A DNA stretch of 64,000 nucleotides from an uncultured Trueperaceae bacterium (GCA_963815215.1 CAWFFU010000011.1:288001-352000), one strand, 5' to 3'. Shown: positions 1 to 22,947, counted from the stretch's first letter. The notes: a model not told the origin generated them from the sequence alone. Translations and numbers: made by a program.

Positions 1-201
1 GTACAGATGGTAGGTGTTGGCGAACAGCAGCTGCGTTCCCGTGGCGGCCACCGCGTCCGGCGCCACCCCCTTGACCGCTGCCTGGGTGCCCACCACGACG
101 AACGCTGGCGTGCGCACCGTGCCGTGCGGTGTCTCGAGCGTACCCAGCCGCGCCGCGCCGCGGCGCTGCTGGAGGGTGAAGGTCAGGGCATGCGTATCCA
201 T
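1..201 (-). CDS. tgt: tRNA-guanine transglycosylase, N-terminal part (runs off window start)
   Basis: Minus-strand translation (absent from the ORF track): MDTHALTFTLQQRRGAARLGTLETPHGTVRTPAFVVVGTQAAVKGVAPDAVAATGTQLLFANTYHLY, carrying the Tgt ARLG..TPHG..TP.F..VGT and NTYHL motifs. Confidence 0.9.
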   Translation of the reverse strand, partial: MDTHALTFTLQQRRGAARLGTLETPHGTVRTPAFVVVGTQAAVKGVAPDAVAATGTQLLFANTYHLY

Positions 202-383
202 GGTGGCGGCCCGCCATCTTACCCGCTTCCCGCCGGCGGCAGCGTTCCGTCAGCCCCACGGCCGAGACGGGACAACGATCCCTCCCGGCACACCGTGACG
301 CCGATGTTAAGCTCCTGTTTGGCGGATTTCACGTGTTCTCACCGACGAGCAGCGTAGTATGCACGTGTCGGGCAGGTCCCGAC

Positions 384-456
384 CTTGGAAGCGATGAAGC
401 CTGTCTCACCACGTGGGCGCTTGAGACGGGTGGAGCGAGTAGCGCAACCGGCCAAG
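384..456 (+). ncRNA. c-di-GMP-II riboswitch aptamer 1
   Basis: P1 CTTGG/CCAAG; GGAAGCGATGAA...GGAGCGAGT kink-turn strands; stem CCTGTCTCA/TGAGACGGG; loop TGGGCGCT pseudoknot with AGCGC; 3' AGTAGCGCAACCGGCC matches the class II consensus AGUAGUGCAACCGAC; candidate -10 TAGTAT at 355-360. Confidence 0.9.
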
Positions 457-573
457 ATGAGTCACCCCTCATCGACAGCCTGACAGTGCCCACGAACGAC
501 CCCTTCCGGGGTCGACCAGGGCGACCACGGTATCCGAGCCCGGTGCATCCGCGCCGCACGCAACGGTCCCGAG

Positions 574-648
574 GCCTTGGACGCGATGAAACCTGTCCTG
601 CACTTGGGCGCTTGGGACAGGTGGAGCGAGTAGCGCAACCGGCCAGGC
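574..648 (+). ncRNA. c-di-GMP-II riboswitch aptamer 2 (tandem copy)
   Basis: P1 (GC)CTTGG/CCAGG(C); GGACGCGATGAA; stem ACCTGTCC/GGACAGGT; loop TTGGGCGCT; identical GGTGGAGCGAGTAGCGCAACCGGCCA 3' half; compensatory stem changes relative to copy 1. Confidence 0.88.
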
Positions 649-712
649 AGGTCCGCAGGTTTGCAGGCTTCCCATCGTCGGTCAGGCGCCCCGATCTCTT
701 CGCGATGCGAGG

Positions 713-1720
713 ATGGCGATGGCGCAGATGAGCAACCAGCCGAGCCAGACACCTACACGGCGCACCCGCCGCCCCGGTCGGCATGCCATGATCGGTTTCT
801 CCGCCATGCTGGCCGCGCTGCTGCTGGCCACCGGCTGTTCGGGCGTGGCCACCGAGCCGCCCCAGGCGGTCACGAACGCCACGGATGTCAGACCGATGTT
901 CGGCGCCTTCACTTACGGCGGCGTCTGGCAGGGCATGCAACCCGTCCACCAGCTCGAGGACCTGCTCGGCCGAAAGCTCGACGTGGTGCACTGGTTCATG
1001 AGCTGGGACACGCCCTATGACGTTGCGCTGGTCGAGTCCGCCATGGCCGGCGGACGCCTGCCGATGATCACCTGGCAGCCCTACCACCAGTCCGTCAGCG
1101 ATATCGCCGCCGGCACCTACGACGACCTCATGCGGAGCTTCGCTCGCGGTGTACGCGCGACGCCCGGCCTCGTCTACGTGCGGCCCTTCCCCGAGATGAA
1201 CGGCGACTGGGAGCCGTGGAACGGGCAGCCCGCCGAGTTCGTGAAGGCGTGGCGTCGCATGGTCGACATCTTCCGCGCAGAAGGCGCCGACAACGTGCGC
1301 TGGGTGTGGTCGCCGAACATCACCGACCAGCCCCGCACGACCGCCAACGCCATGGAGAAGTACTACCCGGGCAGCGCCTACGTCGACGTCCTCGCCCTGG
1401 ACGGCTACAACTGGGGCACGTCGCAGGGCTGGAGCCAGTGGCGTAGCTTCGACCAGATCTTCGCCGAACCCTATGCCCGCATCACCGCTCTGGGCCCCCA
1501 GCCGGTGTGGGTCGCCGAGGTCGCCTCGACCAACAAGGGCGGCGACAAAGCGGCCTGGGTCGCGAACATGCTCAGCAGCACCAAGTTCCCTCGCATCCGC
1601 GCGCTGATCTGGTTCAACGAGAACAGCGACCTGGATTGGCGCCTGGACAATTCGCTGGCCGTCATCCAGGCCGCTCGCGCGAGCCTCACCCCGAGTCTGC
1701 AGACGACCGCCAGCCGCTGA
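713..1720 (+). CDS. Glycoside hydrolase family 26 (beta-mannanase/glucanase-like), probable lipoprotein; start may be 719 or 728
   Basis: RPFPEMNGDW acid/base motif, WVWSPN, YYPG..YVDVLALDGYN, VWVAEVAS nucleophile; Arg-rich N-terminus, hydrophobic stretch and lipobox LLATGC. Confidence 0.88.
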   Translation: MAMAQMSNQPSQTPTRRTRRPGRHAMIGFSAMLAALLLATGCSGVATEPPQAVTNATDVRPMFGAFTYGGVWQGMQPVHQLEDLLGRKLDVVHWFMSWDTPYDVALVESAMAGGRLPMITWQPYHQSVSDIAAGTYDDLMRSFARGVRATPGLVYVRPFPEMNGDWEPWNGQPAEFVKAWRRMVDIFRAEGADNVRWVWSPNITDQPRTTANAMEKYYPGSAYVDVLALDGYNWGTSQGWSQWRSFDQIFAEPYARITALGPQPVWVAEVASTNKGGDKAAWVANMLSSTKFPRIRALIWFNENSDLDWRLDNSLAVIQAARASLTPSLQTTASR

Positions 1721-1787
1721 GGCTAGCCGGCCGAGCCCTTCGCGTCTCTGTCTCTGAACACGACCGCGCGCGCCACGCCACTTCGCG

Positions 1788-4595
1788 TCAGCGCGCGCTG
1801 GCCGTGTCCGTCGGCGCCACGACGGCGCGCGAGCCCCCCGAGAACAACCGCTGCTGGACCGCGCTGTACACCGCCCCGTCCTCGACCCCGTTCGCCGCCA
1901 CGATGGCGCTGCTGCGCCGGTACGCGGCGGCGAGGTCGAGCTTGCCGGAGGCGACCTCGCCGCTCAACGCCACCAGCTGCCGTTCGGGTGCGGCGAGCGA
2001 CGAAGGATCGACCCGGTAGGCGGCGTAGGCGCTGCCGAGTGCGTCGGCCAACGGGCCGAGGTGCACCATGGCCTCCACCGGCCCGCGCAGTTTCGGCGCG
2101 ACCCGGCCGCTGCGCGTTACGCCGTGCAGCGGATTGATGTACAGAGCGTAGGCGACGGCGTCGTCGGTGACGACCGGGCGCGCCAGCGACCACGCCAGTT
2201 TCGCCGCGCCGGCACAGACCGAGAAGTCGGGATCGAAGACGTTGAACGAGCCGCTCAGCAGGTGGGGATTGTACAGCGCGGAGTTCGGATCCTCCGAGAC
2301 CGCCCGCAGCAGCGTCAGCGCGTCGGACGTCATCTGCGACAGTCCCTTGTCGCCGGTCTCCCCTACCGCCAGGGGGTCGAGGTAGGACTCGTTGATCAGG
2401 ACCTGCAGCATGAGGCGCACCGGAACGTCGTAGGTCGAAGCCGCCTGCTCGATGTAGGGCTCGATCGGGGCGAGCCGGCCCAGCATGAGCAGCTCGAACG
2501 GGTCCAGTGGCTGGTAGGCGCCGGCCGAGCCCGGGAGCGGCTGCGGGGCGGCGCTGGGATGCCGTAGGAAGACCGGCCGGCAGTACGCGGACAGCGTGGA
2601 GATCGGCTCGAGCACGGACCCGGTGCCGGAGCCGGCCCTGGAGCCGGCCGCGGAGCCAGTCGCGGACGGCGCGAGAGCGGTCCGTGTCGCGGCACTGTCG
2701 GTCCGGGAGATCACGGCGAAGGCCCCGGGGGCCGCCAGCGCGACCGGCCCTGCCAGCGTGACGCGGACCTGTGGCGCCGTCAGCGACAGCGCAGGGAGCG
2801 GCGAAGAGCGGAGCGGCAGGGCGATCGAAGCCTGGAGCAGCGGGATGGTGGCGCTTTGGGAGCCCGGGCTCAGCAACGCGGGAGCCACCTGCGCGACCGG
2901 CAGCGGCAGGTCGTCGTGTTGCGCCATGTCGAGCGGGGTCGTGCGAGCCAGCAGCCGCTCGATCGCGAGCTGGTCGGCACCCGATGCGGGCGCCAGCGCC
3001 AGGATGGCCACGAACACCACCGACAGGGCGGCGACGATGGAGGCCGCCGTTCCAACGGTGCGGCCGTCGACACCCCGCGTGGTGGGCCGCTCCCACGCCA
3101 CGCCCTGCGTGCGCGTGACCACGCTGCGGCTCGCCGCGCGGCGTTCGGCCAGGAACGCCGGGATCACGCTGGTGGCCGCCGCCACGAAGCTGACGGGGTT
3201 GGCCACCTTGAGAACCATATAGGGCAACCACGTGCTGACCAGCCGTCGACCCGCGAAGCGCGCCGCGGAGCCGCGCCGCCGGCGACCGTCACGCGCCTGC
3301 ACGTAGAAGCCCGAGAAGGTCATGAGGCCGGTCGCTGCCAGGTCCAGCCCGAACCAGGTGGCCAGGATGCGCACCAGGTCGGTCGTTCCGATCGTTCCCG
3401 CCGCGGTGAGGGCCAGCATCACCGGCAGCAGCAGTAGCAACAGCAACCCCAACAGGTTCTCGACTTGCGCAGCCCACAGCGTGAAGCGCACGTTGGAGCT
3501 CATCACCCTGTCGCCCGGATCCCCCAGGACCCGTTTCAGGGCGTTCTGGATGCCGCCGCCGTTCCAGCGTTCGATCTGCCGCAGGTAGCCGCCGACGTGC
3601 GCGGGATCCTCGGTGTACATCAGCGCGTCGCCCACGAAGCGGGCGTTCCCGCCGTGACGAAGCTCGATCACGTCGTGGCGGTCGAAGGCCTCCTCGAAGG
3701 GCAGCTCGGCGCCGTCCACGACGATCCGGAAGCCGCGCCGGGTGAGCTCGGCGGGCGTCAGGCGCTCGTCGTGCCGCGGCACTCGCTGCGCCGTGAGCGT
3801 CAGGTCGTGGTCCTCGGTCTGGGTGTCGGGCGGCATGGGCAGGACGTTGCGCCGCACCACGAAGCCGCAGCCGACCACCGTGTACAGGCGGCTGGCCCCC
3901 CACAGGCCGCCGTCACCCAGCATGCCGGCCTGGCCCCGGCGCAGCACGGCGGCGAAGGCGTACTCGGCCGAGCGACCGGCCGCGATGAAGCGCTGGGTCG
4001 GCCCGGCCCCCTCAGGAACGTAGGACATCACGGACCCGGACTGGAGGGCGTAGTCCTCGAGCACGGGCCGGCCGGCGATCCAACGCAGGCGGTAGAAGTT
4101 CCTCTCGAGCGCGGCGACGAACTCCGGATCGAAGACCGTGTCGCCGTCCACCAGAAGCACGCGCTCGGAACTCAGGATGCGGCTCGCCACCAGGTTGTTG
4201 ATCGCCTCGGACTTGGCCGTCCGCTGCGCGTACACCACCACCGCCACGCCCATGGCGTGATCGTGGTGGCTCCAGCGTTCGAGCGTGGCGCTCAGCCCCG
4301 GGGCACGGCCGGCCGAGTCCAGCTCGAACCCGTGCCCGACCAGGGTCGCGCCGACGACCTCGTGGGTGCGGTCGGTCCCGCCGTTGATGCTGACGATGAG
4401 TTCGTCGGGCAGGCGGCGCTGCGACAGCAGCGACGTCAGCGCCCGCCTCGCTCCGACCTCTTCGTTGTACATCGGCGAGACGACCGCCAGCCTGTCGGGT
4501 CCGCGGACGGGCAGACTACGGTCAGGGACCGTACTGAGCGCTGCGTTGAGAAGGGTTGTGGGCATCCCGGACAGGCCGAAGAAGTTGGGCATCAC
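1788..4595 (-). CDS. Processive glycosyltransferase family 2 fused to a C-terminal SLT/lysozyme-like transglycosylase domain
   Basis: PMYNEE, INGGTD, K..A.N, VDGDT (DxD), TED and RQIERW (QxxRW) motifs, several TM helices, Ala/Pro/Ser linker, then IEQAASTYDVPVRLMLQVLINESYLDPLAVGETGDKGLSQM...FDPDFSVCAGAAKL (SLT ES..GL.Q signature). Confidence 0.85.
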   Translation of the reverse strand: MMPNFFGLSGMPTTLLNAALSTVPDRSLPVRGPDRLAVVSPMYNEEVGARRALTSLLSQRRLPDELIVSINGGTDRTHEVVGATLVGHGFELDSAGRAPGLSATLERWSHHDHAMGVAVVVYAQRTAKSEAINNLVASRILSSERVLLVDGDTVFDPEFVAALERNFYRLRWIAGRPVLEDYALQSGSVMSYVPEGAGPTQRFIAAGRSAEYAFAAVLRRGQAGMLGDGGLWGASRLYTVVGCGFVVRRNVLPMPPDTQTEDHDLTLTAQRVPRHDERLTPAELTRRGFRIVVDGAELPFEEAFDRHDVIELRHGGNARFVGDALMYTEDPAHVGGYLRQIERWNGGGIQNALKRVLGDPGDRVMSSNVRFTLWAAQVENLLGLLLLLLLPVMLALTAAGTIGTTDLVRILATWFGLDLAATGLMTFSGFYVQARDGRRRRGSAARFAGRRLVSTWLPYMVLKVANPVSFVAAATSVIPAFLAERRAASRSVVTRTQGVAWERPTTRGVDGRTVGTAASIVAALSVVFVAILALAPASGADQLAIERLLARTTPLDMAQHDDLPLPVAQVAPALLSPGSQSATIPLLQASIALPLRSSPLPALSLTAPQVRVTLAGPVALAAPGAFAVISRTDSAATRTALAPSATGSAAGSRAGSGTGSVLEPISTLSAYCRPVFLRHPSAAPQPLPGSAGAYQPLDPFELLMLGRLAPIEPYIEQAASTYDVPVRLMLQVLINESYLDPLAVGETGDKGLSQMTSDALTLLRAVSEDPNSALYNPHLLSGSFNVFDPDFSVCAGAAKLAWSLARPVVTDDAVAYALYINPLHGVTRSGRVAPKLRGPVEAMVHLGPLADALGSAYAAYRVDPSSLAAPERQLVALSGEVASGKLDLAAAYRRSSAIVAANGVEDGAVYSAVQQRLFSGGSRAVVAPTDTASAR

Positions 4596-4796
4596 GAAGT
4601 CCTATCCGTTGGAGCTCTTCCACTCGAGGGCGGCGGCGGGGGCGGGGCGCCGCACTTTCGTCGCGCCTGTCGGGCCGCGACGACCCGCTGTGAAACCTCT
4701 CGCTCTCTATGTAACACTGCTCTCCCCGCCCTGTTGTCCAGCCGTCACAGCCCTGTGCGCTGGGTGGTTTACGATCGTGTGATTTGGGAGGTGCGC

Positions 4797-5420
4797 ATGG
4801 CACTTCACATCAGCGGTAAGCTCGTGGCCGTAGGCCTCGTCCTGGCCGCACTGATCACCGCATTCAGCGCCCCCCGCAGCGTACAGAACGCGGGTGTCGC
4901 CTTGACCCTCACCCCAACCGCCACGGTCCTCACCACGCCTGCCTCGCCGGCGCCGCTGCGGGCCGGGTCGGTCGGGCCCGAGGCCAATCCTGTGTTCACG
5001 CTGCGGGCCACGGGTTACAACTCGATGGTCGACCAGACCGACGCCACCCCGTTCATCACCTCGACTGGACAGCGTACCCGTTTCGGGATCATCGCGGTGA
5101 GCCCTGACCTACTGGCCCACGCCCTGCCGTACGGCAGCCTGGTGCGCATCCGGGACCTCGGCAACTACTACACCGGCCGCGGCTACGGGCACTACCAGAG
5201 CCTGCTGGACGGCCAGGGACTGTTCATCGTCGAGGACACCATGCACTACCGCAAGCGCGATCAGATCGACATCTGGTTCAGCGACTACGCCAGCGCGGTG
5301 AACTGGGGCATGCGCAAGGTGAGCGTCGAGGTCATCCGTTATGGGCGCAACGGCCCCAAACTCGAACCCTCGCGTGCCAACGACTTCAGCGGGACACCGC
5401 AACTGTTCGCCTCGCGCTGA
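4797..5420 (+). CDS. Secreted 3D-domain (MltA/Sps-like) cell-wall protein
   Basis: SD GGGAGG before ATG 4797; signal peptide; ATGYNS..QTD.TPFITSTG, IIAVSPDLL, LPYGS, IVEDT, IDIW (three-Asp 3D motif). Confidence 0.85.
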   Translation: MALHISGKLVAVGLVLAALITAFSAPRSVQNAGVALTLTPTATVLTTPASPAPLRAGSVGPEANPVFTLRATGYNSMVDQTDATPFITSTGQRTRFGIIAVSPDLLAHALPYGSLVRIRDLGNYYTGRGYGHYQSLLDGQGLFIVEDTMHYRKRDQIDIWFSDYASAVNWGMRKVSVEVIRYGRNGPKLEPSRANDFSGTPQLFASR

Positions 5421-5561
5421 CGGCGCCGACCGGCCGCACTCGCAGCGATCGGTCCTCAACCCGCGGCCCCGGACCGCAGTGACGTCCGCGGATGTGGCGC
5501 GCGCGGCCGGCACGGGCCGGGGGCGTCTCCGGCAGCCTCAGGCCGCACGGTAGACTGGCCC

Positions 5562-6743
5562 GTGCGGAGCCTCGTACCGTACCTGGCGTGGCGGCACGTC
5601 CGCCGACGCGGCCTGCAATCCGGCCTCACCGTGGTCGGCGTGGCGGTCGGCGTCATGGTCCTGATCGTCGCGCTGTCGCTGACCAACGGCTTCGTGGACG
5701 AGCTGATCCGCAGCACCCTGAAGGCCACCCCCATGCTCACGCTCGAGAGCTACATCTCCGGGCAGACGGTGCCGAACGACCCCGCGGTCGGCCGGGCCCT
5801 GGCGGGTCGCCCGTCGGTCACTGCGGTCGCCCCCTTCCTCAGCACCCAGGCGCTCATCGCGCGGCGCGCCAGCGCCAGCCTCGGGATCACCGCCCGGCAG
5901 GGCTACACCCAGATCGTGGGCATCGACCCGGCGCAGGAGACGCAAGTCCTCGACCTGCCGATCCTCCAGAAGCAGGCGACGGCCCTGGCCCGGCGGGACG
6001 GCATCGTGCTGGGCGCCTCGCTGGCGCAGCAGCTCGGCGTGATCGCAGGGGACAAGGTGGTGCTGCGCGACATCACGGGCCACACCGCCGAGCTCACCGT
6101 GGCAGGCACCTTCCGCGTCGGCAACGAGCTCATCGACGGGATCGCGTCGTACATGTCGCTGGCCAACCTGCAGCAGTACATGCACGTGGGGGACCGGATC
6201 AGCGGCTACCACTTGCGACTGGCCGACCCGCAGCGCGCTTCGGCGCTCGGTGTGACGCTCGGCGACGCCTTCGGCCTGCGCCCGGTCTCCTGGGACAGCC
6301 TGTTCGCCAACCTCATCAGCCAGCTCCGCCTGCAGAAGGCGGTCATCGCGGTGGTGGTGTTCCTCATCGTCCTTGTCGCCGCCATGGGGATCGCCAATAT
6401 CCTGGTGTTGACGGTATCGGAGAAGACCGAAGAGATCGCCATCCTGCGGGCGCTGGGCGCTACCGAGCGGCAGGTGCTGGCCGTCTTCACGCTGGAGGGG
6501 CTGCTGCTCGGCGCCACCGGCACGCTCCTGGGAGCCCTCCTCGGGCTGGGCGTGAGCACCTACTTCCGTCTGCAGCCCTACCCCCTGCCGGGCAACCTCT
6601 ACTTCATCACCCAGCTCCCCGTGCAGCTCCAGCCGACCGACGTGCTGTGGGTATGCGCGCTGTCGATCGGCACCAGCGTGCTCGCCGGGCTCTTCCCCGC
6701 GCGGCGCGCGGCCAACCTCGACCCCGTCGACGTCCTGCGCTGA
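5562..6743 (+). CDS. Lipoprotein-releasing ABC transporter permease (LolC/E, FtsX family)
   Basis: GVAVGVMVLIVALSLTNGF, EKTEEIAILRALGA, PARRAANLDPVDVLR motifs. Confidence 0.88.
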   Translation: MRSLVPYLAWRHVRRRGLQSGLTVVGVAVGVMVLIVALSLTNGFVDELIRSTLKATPMLTLESYISGQTVPNDPAVGRALAGRPSVTAVAPFLSTQALIARRASASLGITARQGYTQIVGIDPAQETQVLDLPILQKQATALARRDGIVLGASLAQQLGVIAGDKVVLRDITGHTAELTVAGTFRVGNELIDGIASYMSLANLQQYMHVGDRISGYHLRLADPQRASALGVTLGDAFGLRPVSWDSLFANLISQLRLQKAVIAVVVFLIVLVAAMGIANILVLTVSEKTEEIAILRALGATERQVLAVFTLEGLLLGATGTLLGALLGLGVSTYFRLQPYPLPGNLYFITQLPVQLQPTDVLWVCALSIGTSVLAGLFPARRAANLDPVDVLR

Positions 6744-7375
6744 TGGACCGGAGCGCTCCGCTCGACCGGGACCGGGCCTGGACCTACTTGCTCGATCTGC
6801 TGACGCGGCGCGACTACACCGAGGCCGAGCTGCGGGCCAAGCTACAGCGCAGGAAGGTGGACGCCGACGTCGCCGACACTCTGCTCGCGCGTTTGCGCGA
6901 GCTCGGTCTGGCCGACGACGCACGCTACACCGAACACTACGTGGCCTCGCGCCGGCGCTCCCGCGGCCGCCTGGCGCTGCGAACGGAATTGCGCCGCAAG
7001 GGCGTCGACCCCTCTGTCGTCGAGCGTGAGCTCGAGCCGCTCACGGAAGGGCAGCAGCTCGAGGCGGCGGCGGCGCTGTTGCGCCGCTTCGCCTGGCGCT
7101 ACCAGCCCGGCAGCACGCGCCGGCGGCGCACCGCGACCCACGCCCAGGAACCCGAGAAGGAATCCGCGTCGGCGCCCGGCACGCCGTCGGGCTCGGGTGC
7201 CGACGCGGGCCGGGACGCGAGCCGGGACGGGGGCCGCGACGCGGAGGCGCAGGCGCGACGCGACGCCCTCGCCGAACGCGCCCGCGCCTTCGCCTTCCTG
7301 GCCCGGCGCGGCTTCACCGGCGCGGTGGCCGGCGACGCGATCCGCGTGCTCGGCTGGTGGCAGGACGCGTCCTGA
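6743..7375 (+). CDS. recX: Regulatory protein RecX
   Basis: LLTRRDYTEAELRAKL, LADDARY, GRLALRTELRRKGV, AFLARRGF; TGATG coupling with the upstream gene. Confidence 0.88.
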   Translation: MDRSAPLDRDRAWTYLLDLLTRRDYTEAELRAKLQRRKVDADVADTLLARLRELGLADDARYTEHYVASRRRSRGRLALRTELRRKGVDPSVVERELEPLTEGQQLEAAAALLRRFAWRYQPGSTRRRRTATHAQEPEKESASAPGTPSGSGADAGRDASRDGGRDAEAQARRDALAERARAFAFLARRGFTGAVAGDAIRVLGWWQDAS

Positions 7376-7457
7376 GCGGGCCGCTGCGGGGCGCGTCGAA
7401 GCCGGCGCCGCGCGCCTTGACCCCCCGGCCCGGGGCTAGTAGAGTTGTTAGTTGCGT

Positions 7458-7535
<78 letters not shown>

Positions 7536-12027: not shown

Positions 12028-12101
12028 GGCTCGGCGGGTAGGATTCGAACCTACGACCAATCGGTTAACAGCCGACCGCTCTACCACTGAGCTACCGCCG
12101 A
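12027..12101 (-). tRNA. tRNA-Asn(GTT)
   Basis: Reverse complement TCGGCGGTAGCTCAGTGGTAGAGCGGTCGGCTGTTAACCGATTGGTCGTAGGTTCGAATCCTACCCGCCGAGCCA. Confidence 0.97.
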
Positions 12102-22870: not shown

Positions 22871-22947
22871 GCGCCCGTAGCTCAGCCGGATAGAGCGTTC
22901 GCCTCCGGAGCGAAAGGTCACAGGTTCGAATCCTGTCGGGCGCACCA
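22871..22947 (+). tRNA. tRNA-Arg(CCG)
   Basis: GCGCCCG-TAGCTCAG...TTCGC-CTCCGGA-GCGAA...GGTTCGAATCC...CGGGCGC-ACCA. Confidence 0.97.

Follow-up and report, generated by a model that had tools for sequence, protein, structure and literature searches.

A conserved cassette in Trueperaceae joins a GT2-SLT fusion protein to a GH26 lipoprotein preceded by c-di-GMP-II riboswitches

The synthase-dependent polysaccharide systems Bcs, Pga/Ica, Pel and Alg combine an inner-membrane GT2 synthase carrying the DxD, TED and QxxRW motifs with a linked hydrolase and with control by cyclic di-GMP (c-di-GMP) (PMC8892547). In the case of Bcs, the crossing of the cell wall is still an open question and the recruitment of wall-remodelling enzymes is mentioned as an unexplored possibility in a review in which the words "transglycosylase", "riboswitch" and "GH26" do not occur (PMC8892547). 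The CslA-GlxA-CslZ-LpmP system of Streptomyces consists of a GT2 synthase, a glucanase and a peptidoglycan-remodelling enzyme, and CslZ and LpmP are described as remodelling the peptidoglycan for the passage of the glycan (PMC9040799). Here we analyze a locus in a 64,000-nucleotide stretch of DNA from an uncultured Trueperaceae bacterium (GCA_963815215.1 CAWFFU010000011.1:288001-352000, hereafter the window), where a gene encoding a GH26 lipoprotein, led by two c-di-GMP-II aptamers, converges on a gene encoding a GT2 synthase-like protein fused to an SLT domain.

By analogy, the cassette may work most like the Streptomyces CslA-CslZ-LpmP system, and like the synthase-dependent systems generally. 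An oxidoreductase-like partner occurs in both cases, namely GlxA in Streptomyces and a GSDH-type propeller in most relatives of the cassette (PMC9040799). Judging from the families matched, however, the parts are non-homologous: the cassette has a GH26 where Streptomyces has CslZ and a fused SLT domain where Streptomyces has a separate lytic polysaccharide monooxygenase, its host belongs to the Deinococcota, its riboswitch is placed on the hydrolase, and its synthase has three transmembrane (TM) helices (PMC9040799). Unlike Bcs, Pga/Ica, Pel and Alg, the cassette was found to carry no PilZ domain, co-polymerase, TPR scaffold or porin, its wall-lytic domain is fused to the synthase, and the first Asp of the synthase signature is replaced (PMC8892547). 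As regards Bcs in particular, PilZ was found neither on the fusion protein nor in the genome, BCSC_C gave no match, and no cellulose-synthase model was matched. No description of the cassette or of the GT2-SLT fusion was found in the literature searched, which covered few subscription papers; the cassette is a real, family-wide variant that is apparently undescribed.

The GT2-SLT fusion was identified in 77 of the 128 Trueperaceae genomes analyzed and GH26 homologues in 74: both are present in 73 genomes, the fusion only in 4, GH26 only in 1 and neither of them in 50. The single genome with GH26 only carries a distant match (41%), and in all four fusion-only genomes the fusion sits close to a contig end. 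A profile of the GT2 half matched 58 of 102 Trueperaceae genomes and none of 198 genomes from the four other families of the phylum that were sampled. Locus regions were taken from 74 of the 77 fusion genomes (G042, G044 and G090 were left out). The GT2 and SLT halves share one open frame in 70 of the 73 loci holding both, and GH26 lies at most 4.5 kb from the fusion in 62 of the 67 evaluable loci, 7 further loci being too short. This proximity is kept through relocation and through four arrangements of the two genes: convergent, as in the window; divergent (G119); in tandem, separated by the riboswitches (G066); and in the same direction with no riboswitch (G135). GH26 is also kept in 12 of the 22 loci lacking the 3D-like gene that is the divergent neighbour of the fusion in the window. 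These data support the view that GH26, its riboswitch and the GT2-SLT fusion form one conserved unit. In Trueperaceae the cassette thus consists of one or more riboswitches, one or two copies of GH26 (two copies in 24 loci), usually a GSDH-type propeller, and the GT2-SLT fusion. At least one aptamer was found in 55 of the 74 loci, and at least two in 33. Of 61 evaluable loci, 49 have the propeller gene of the GSDH family (PF07995, E 1e-45) next to the fusion; the locus in the window has lost it, a 41% paralogue being located elsewhere on the contig.

The features of the locus are listed in Table 1. Much of the original prediction, which was made from the sequence of the window without database searches, stands up to these comparisons. 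Both aptamers exceed the Rfam gathering score for RF01786 (53.5 bits), the GH26 protein has a Pfam match as well as a lipobox-like signal, the GT2 and SLT matches fall within a single open reading frame (ORF), and the treatment of GH26, riboswitch and fusion as one system is borne out by their co-occurrence and linkage. The statement that the locus lacks PilZ and porin genes agrees with searches of the window's own genome (97% complete) for four families: PilZ, BcsC_C, Alginate_exp and Poly_export all gave no match.

Table 1. Features of the locus, with positions counted from the first nucleotide of the window.
Feature	Position	Strand	Details
c-di-GMP-II aptamer 1	378..462	+	Rfam RF01786, 64.4 bits
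c-di-GMP-II aptamer 2	573..653	+	Rfam RF01786, 71.0 bits; pseudoknot loop 605-613
Predicted expression platform	681..721	+	Anti-loop element 685-692, Shine-Dalgarno 709-713, likely start codon 719
GH26 glycoside hydrolase lipoprotein ORF	713..1720	+	PF02156, E 1e-10; lipobox-like LATGC; catalytic E161, E269
GT2-SLT fusion ORF, 934 aa	4592..1788	-	PF00535, E 7e-7; PF01464, E 2.8e-6 at residues 713-803
GT2 catalytic domain of fusion	3525..4592	-	D149xD151, T259ED, Q339xxRW; SINGG.D instead of first Asp motif
Membrane part of fusion	2994..3497	-	Three TM helices (centres 389, 418, 524), amphipathic interface region, gating-loop-like W500xRP; from hydropathy, positive-inside counts and model
Ala/Pro/Ser-rich periplasmic linker, predicted disordered	2604..2891	-	pLDDT <50, residues 568-663
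SLT / GH23 lytic-transglycosylase-fold domain	1833..2600	-	Invariant E735, S736, D748, G750, Q753, Y815, N820
3D-like secreted protein, flanking core gene outside cassette	4797..5420	+	Gene-presence and neighbourhood comparison
5' end of presumed tgt, left flank of insertion site, outside cassette	1..201	-	Neighbourhood comparison

In the model that we favour, which we consider about as likely to be right as wrong, the fusion would make an envelope beta-glycan, its periplasmic SLT domain would open the peptidoglycan locally, and GH26 would erase the glycan when c-di-GMP is low. The GT2 domain would polymerise a beta-linked glycan at the inner membrane, and the last membrane helix is predicted in silico to hold the SLT domain in the periplasm on a flexible linker, where it might nick the peptidoglycan beside the synthase and let the chain enter or cross the wall. 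The GH26 lipoprotein would cut this self-made glycan, as its linkage suggests. The binding of c-di-GMP would free a loop-capturing element to cover the ribosome-binding site and turn GH26 translation off, as conservation and folding indicate, and the net effect would be that the cell retains the glycan when c-di-GMP is high and removes it when c-di-GMP is low, control being exerted on the eraser and not on the synthase. A bolder version, possible but doubtful, is that of a one-polypeptide machine in which a GT2 with three helices, needing neither co-polymerase nor porin, delivers a mixed-linkage glycan into the opening cut by its own SLT domain, possibly grafting a layer onto the wall, and c-di-GMP acts only via a class II translational OFF switch on GH26. 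The association of a GT2-SLT fusion with a riboswitch-controlled GH26 suggests an undescribed way of bringing a sugar polymer into or through the wall, and a synthase with a covalently attached, apparently intact lytic domain makes the question of peptidoglycan crossing testable in a single gene.

Several findings weigh against this model. The genomes compared are kin, so that the counts overstate the independence of the loci, and in five evaluable genomes GH26 is unlinked from the fusion and located elsewhere. In the GT2 half, the first Asp of the D,D,D,QxxRW signature, which is involved in uridine binding (PMC10374906), is replaced by I/V/L69 followed by an invariant N70, and the top match in the VIA structural comparison is the minimal mannosyltransferase PcManGT (Z 24.9, rmsd 3.6, 328 aligned residues). 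Only three membrane helices were detected in the fusion by averaged hydropathy; RiGT2 has seven, and three are therefore too few for a one-chain channel, so that a partner or an oligomer would be needed. It is this helix count that most weakens the case for an exopolysaccharide. The loci yielded neither a co-polymerase nor an outer-membrane exporter, and three family searches of the window's own genome gave no exporter either; with three helices and no exporter found, export of a long exopolysaccharide by the GT2 is at most putative. The chemistry signals conflict, GH26 pointing to a glucan and the GT2 motifs and two deacetylase neighbours to GlcNAc. Lastly, the sign count in favour of an OFF switch is modest (36/55 positive, versus 31/55 in the shuffled-linker control).

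The catalytic motifs DxD, TED (259-261) and QxxRW, together with W500, are invariant in 73/73 aligned homologues of the GT2 half. The structure model of the fusion has a mean pLDDT of 86, the linker being its disordered part; the length of this linker ranges from 36 to 142 residues across homologues. The Lys/Arg counts place the GT domain and the gating loop inside and the SLT domain outside. With the GT2 model, Foldseek ranked hyaluronan and chitin synthases first, above BcsA, and in VIA PcManGT was followed by a viral hyaluronan synthase (22.3) and BcsA (21.6). Among the 12 NCBIfam families matched by 57 members there was no cellulose-synthase model; 53 members matched PgaC_IcaA and 11 matched NodC, weakly and far below the cut-offs in every case. 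The score with TIGR03937 (PgaC_IcaA) was 26.5 bits against a cut-off of 422.3, and only 2 of 74 genomes have a CE4 deacetylase next to the fusion, which sets the fusion apart from PgaC/IcaA. A phmmer search with the fusion against PDB sequences returned nothing at E<=1.

It is unlikely, but worth serious consideration, that the GT2 is a minimal, non-exporting transferase of the PcManGT or NodC kind, making a short or lipid-linked envelope glycan such as a decoration of peptidoglycan or of a glycolipid, in which case the SLT domain would make the attachment site and GH26 would remove the decoration. In its favour are the small number of helices, the rank of PcManGT, the weak NodC matches, the lack of a detected exporter and a sister clade of stand-alone GT2 proteins: nine of these, 476-517 aa long (plus one of 622 aa), end just past the gating-loop motif, without the last helix and the SLT domain. 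PcManGT itself, an archaeal mannosyltransferase with a minimal cellulose-synthase-like fold (PDB 6yv7), aligns over 328/346 residues and has few membrane helices, but the identity is 19%, and the fusion adds insertions, a C-terminal TM helix, a linker, the SLT domain and a linked hydrolase. Set against a minimal transferase are the dedicated endo-type GH26 with its two invariant catalytic Glu residues, which suggests a substrate several sugars long, the retention of the gating-loop-like WxRP and of the interface helices, and the fact that Foldseek puts true polymerases first.

The stand-alone proteins came from a profile search of 1.84 billion representatives, in which the 44 proteins matched at E<=1e-30 were fusions, fusion fragments and stand-alone GT2 proteins; one of the stand-alone clusters is named Patescibacteria. 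A metagenome scan for this sister clade yielded one full-length match, on a 2.2 kb contig, the other 79 loci kept being short generic GT2 matches, and a plasmid search with the GT2 half yielded one weak match only. The tail comprising TM helix, linker and SLT domain may have been added to the GT2 within Trueperaceae. In three genomes (L112 in G086, L078 in G046 and L088 in G096) the fusion is broken by frameshifts or a stop, reflecting either decay or assembly error. A beta-helix lipoprotein of 505-550 aa with Chlam_PMP repeats abuts the fusion in 7 of 74 genomes, directly downstream (L050, L070-L074 and L078), in genera where GH26 is often unlinked.

The SLT domain, when modelled separately (pLDDT 94), matched MltF (Z 12.3, rmsd 2.7, 142 aligned residues), Slt (Z 12.1), MltC (Z 11.7) and MltE (11.1), values to be read with care since the fold tool recommends caution below Z of about 13 for helical folds. 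Lytic transglycosylases make up all of the top eight structural matches, and the best match in sequence is MltC (E 0.001), with the catalytic motif aligned. The third motif of family 1 lytic transglycosylases is AYNxG; in the SLT domain it appears as AYAxYINP, and the Tyr and the Asn listed in Table 1 are invariant. The invariant D748, where MltC has an Ala, precedes Q753 by five residues. D60 and Q65 have the same spacing in EtgA, the enzyme that perforates the peptidoglycan for the type III secretion system (PMC10880428). EtgA/IagB resemble the SLT domain in fold, in the catalytic Glu and in the lysozyme-like Asp five residues before the conserved Gln, and they open the wall for a trans-envelope process, as the SLT domain would; unlike it, EtgA is not fused to its partner but is brought in on its own by the type III secretion rod (PMC10880428), and it ranks low as a fold match (Z 7.0 and 5.3). 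Because the catalytic residues are invariant and the fold is that of lytic transglycosylases, the SLT domain is probably active. Both its intact active site and, by the topology given above, its location on the outer side of the membrane are supported. Its substrate is presumably peptidoglycan, and hydrolysis, which the extra Asp748 would allow, is as possible as transglycosylation.

An SLT domain trimming or terminating the synthase's own product in the manner of a GH23 chitinase or a GH124 glucanase, which would make of the cassette a synthase accompanied by two processing enzymes, without any opening of the wall, seems to us rather improbable. The fold is common to a Ralstonia GH23 chitinase (Z 9.0) and a GH124 cellulase (Z 8.7) lower in the ranking, the lysozyme-like Asp and the altered YINP motif are compatible with such a role, and so is the leaning of the GT2 motifs towards synthases of GlcNAc polymers. 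It is opposed by the predominance of lytic transglycosylases among the best matches, by the presence of a hydrolase already in the form of the separate GH26, and by the long flexible linker, which would suit a domain reaching for the wall.

Both catalytic Glu residues of GH26 are invariant in 49/49 aligned copies. The nearest solved relative is CelH/CtLic26A of C. thermocellum (E 5e-55 with a single sequence, 7e-65 with a profile), all the others being at 2e-10 or weaker, and CtLic26A is named as the beta-1,3/1,4-glucanase of the GH26 family (PMC10470212). A mannanase activity is disfavoured, this lichenase being far nearer, and the enzyme, being CtLic26A-like rather than mannanase-like, does not have the look of the nutritional mannanase that would have spoken against the original prediction. 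The residue immediately before the acid/base Glu is Pro in 49/49 copies and His in CtLic26A, so that the specificity may differ. Among the 9 plasmid records with a related GH26, 6 were examined, of which 2 have GH26 directly after a GT2 gene and 4 do not; the two are from Deinococcus taeanensis, with a GH16 and a GT2 that is PgaC-like by motif, and from a haloarchaeon. The His-to-Pro clade of GH26, found after GT2 genes in several lineages, may represent a new specificity, and the polymer to which it points may be one not yet described.

On the D. taeanensis plasmid NZ_CP083458.1 (L244:3729-7810), the genes encode a GH16, a membrane protein, the PgaC-like GT2 and a GH26 with the same Pro-Glu motif. 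The membrane protein has what we take to be a degenerate GGDEF-like tail, and this operon is a possible protein-receptor counterpart of the cassette. The CE4 polysaccharide deacetylase genes that abut the fusion are located at L090:10732-11886 (G114) and L069:2727-3977 (G135), and a distant CE4 homologue occurs in the window's own genome at C8:48109-49254. A mixed 1,3/1,4-linked chain would fit both chemistry signals, and the likeliest polymer is a mixed beta-1,3/1,4-linked chain, either a pure glucan or one with an N-acetylated sugar. A lichenase-like hydrolase hints at the beta-1,3/1,4 product of the mixed-linkage synthases BgsA and RiGT2, the latter of which also lacks a BcsB partner (PMC10374906). 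RiGT2, compared here by its published description, differs in that it is BcsA-like and in that its seven TM helices, its FxVTxK gating loop and its PilZ domain have no counterpart in the cassette (PMC10374906).

It is very unlikely that GH26 scavenges an external beta-glucan or mannan and that its linkage with GT2-SLT is inherited synteny only. Some of the genomes with an unlinked GH26 have up to six GH26 matches, and the nearest characterised relative is a catabolic cellulosome enzyme; on the other hand, the fusion is present in 73 of the 74 GH26-positive genomes, the linkage is kept where the genes have moved or changed orientation, the cassette loci that were inspected showed no sugar transporter, and it is c-di-GMP rather than a sugar regulator that exerts control.

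The original prediction counted a third member, the divergent ORF 4797-5420, as a 3D-domain protein opening the wall together with the SLT domain. The divergent orientation is as stated; the 3D label is likely but weakly shown. The ORF has no Pfam match at E<=0.1 and no NCBIfam match, its comparison with YuiC is non-significant (E 0.33), the Atlas cluster into which it falls, at 0.94, has PF06725 in 21% of its members, and its Asp motifs are those that we take to be 3D motifs. Of 68 evaluable loci, 46 have the gene next to the fusion in divergent orientation; in 44 of these it is followed by lolE, and in the other two the contig ends with it. It was also found in 45 of 46 genomes chosen, including 20/20 Trueperaceae genomes without the fusion and 10/10 from other families. 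Among the best 30 3D loci, a gene that we take from its sequence to be tgt stands directly upstream of 3D in 13 of the 15 from fusion-less genomes, two of which belong to the window's genus, and in 9 of the 15 from fusion-bearing genomes. The 3D gene stays beside lolE-recX, and tgt adjoins it directly where the cassette is absent or elsewhere. Since tgt, 3D and lolE are contiguous without the cassette, the cassette occupies an otherwise empty tgt-3D site. In a quick tree of 57 GT2 domains and 4 outgroup rows, which supports no claim on donor or order of events, the loci without 3D form two groups nested among the 3D-adjacent ones, plus deeper ones.

The full version of the prediction, with 3D as the second wall-opening member, is accordingly extremely improbable in spite of the frequent divergent adjacency, as it is already largely refuted by the empty site and by the presence of the gene whatever the status of the cassette. 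The 3D gene is a flank, neither co-inherited nor co-relocated with GT2-SLT; as to the linkage of the three predicted genes in relatives, that of GH26 with the fusion holds and 3D does not move with the cassette, and of the two domains expected to open a path through the wall, only the SLT domain is retained. After the 3D gene, a lolE-like ABC permease gene, a recX-like gene and a tRNA gene (window 5562-7531) form a conserved core block, and further tRNA genes were found at 12030-12101 and 22871-22944.

Turning to the leader of GH26, which in the favoured model controls the eraser, the loci contained 91 aptamer hits; 90 of them could be parsed, and 55 stand as the final aptamer ahead of a GH26. 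In the window, the loop of aptamer 2 is by its sequence complementary to the 3' strand of the pseudoknot. Downstream of 45 of the 55 GH26-proximal aptamers there is an element complementary to the aptamer's pseudoknot loop, versus a mean of 4.3 in shuffles, and the loop duplex is better than the mean of its own shuffles in 52 of 55. A looser form of the motif is present in 52/55, and in 42 of these 52 a G-rich arm further downstream, in many cases immediately ahead of the start codon, pairs with the C-rich tail of the element; the pairing is CCUC:GAGG in 4 cases and CCCC:GGGG in 10. When the aptamer was blocked in folding, with start codons chosen automatically, the ribosome site became harder to open in 37 of 55 leaders and easier in 11. 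In the separate comparison with shuffled linkers, the shift averaged +2.0 kcal/mol versus +0.45 in the shuffles (+7.6 versus +0.3 in this window). Because the two pairings are mutually exclusive, the ligand protecting the loop and the tail of the element being left to cover the ribosome site, the GH26 leader is probably a translational OFF switch through which c-di-GMP would silence the hydrolase. The original prediction of an RNA-level action on the hydrolase agrees with the aptamers leading GH26; it had missed this likely direction, as well as the GSDH propeller gene. No intrinsic terminators or sigma-70 promoters were found in window 190-5600, and therefore no terminator-type platform is seen. 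A CAUCG element pairing with the aptamer 5' strand or with the start codon was dropped as a candidate, being confined to close kin.

Tandem class II c-di-GMP aptamers are known, 59 doublets and 9 triplets having been listed (PMC9481103). In C. difficile, class II switches turn expression on, and the releasing protease PPEP-1 is under an OFF switch of class I (PMC11477304). The cassette would resemble this regulon, in which PPEP-1 is opposed to adhesins and pili, in acting through RNA and in having the releasing enzyme off at high c-di-GMP, and would differ from it in that a class II aptamer appears to act as a translational OFF switch on a glycoside hydrolase (PMC11477304). If the OFF reading holds, the leader would provide a repressing class II c-di-GMP riboswitch, with the control logic placed on the hydrolase only. 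One aptamer before a second GH26 copy (L048:7075-7158, in G003) is matched best as c-di-GMP-II-GAG (RF03169, 44.7 bits), possibly indicating another ligand for this paralogue.

Switches of the c-di-GMP-II class are present in 115 of the 128 Trueperaceae genomes, and the window's own genome has seven aptamers and 22 GGDEF matches along with no PilZ match; RNA is thus a general c-di-GMP output in the family and is not specific to the cassette. In this genome, tandem aptamers at C3:1070163-1070998 precede a gene for a small secreted protein that matches nothing in Pfam or NCBIfam. At C11:355500-361600, a single aptamer (C11:361343-361426, - strand) leads an operon, several frames of which are interrupted; we take its genes from their appearance to encode pilin, chaperone and usher-like proteins, Pfam giving CarboxypepD_reg and weak hits only, and its leader, to judge from folding, may be an ON switch, the reverse of what is predicted for GH26. 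At C8:285801-287833, tandem aptamers lead a lipoprotein with Ig and beta-helix parts that is similar to the pectate lyase PelN (NF041899, E 1e-21, far below the cut-off) and is possibly a second c-di-GMP-gated polysaccharide-cutting enzyme.

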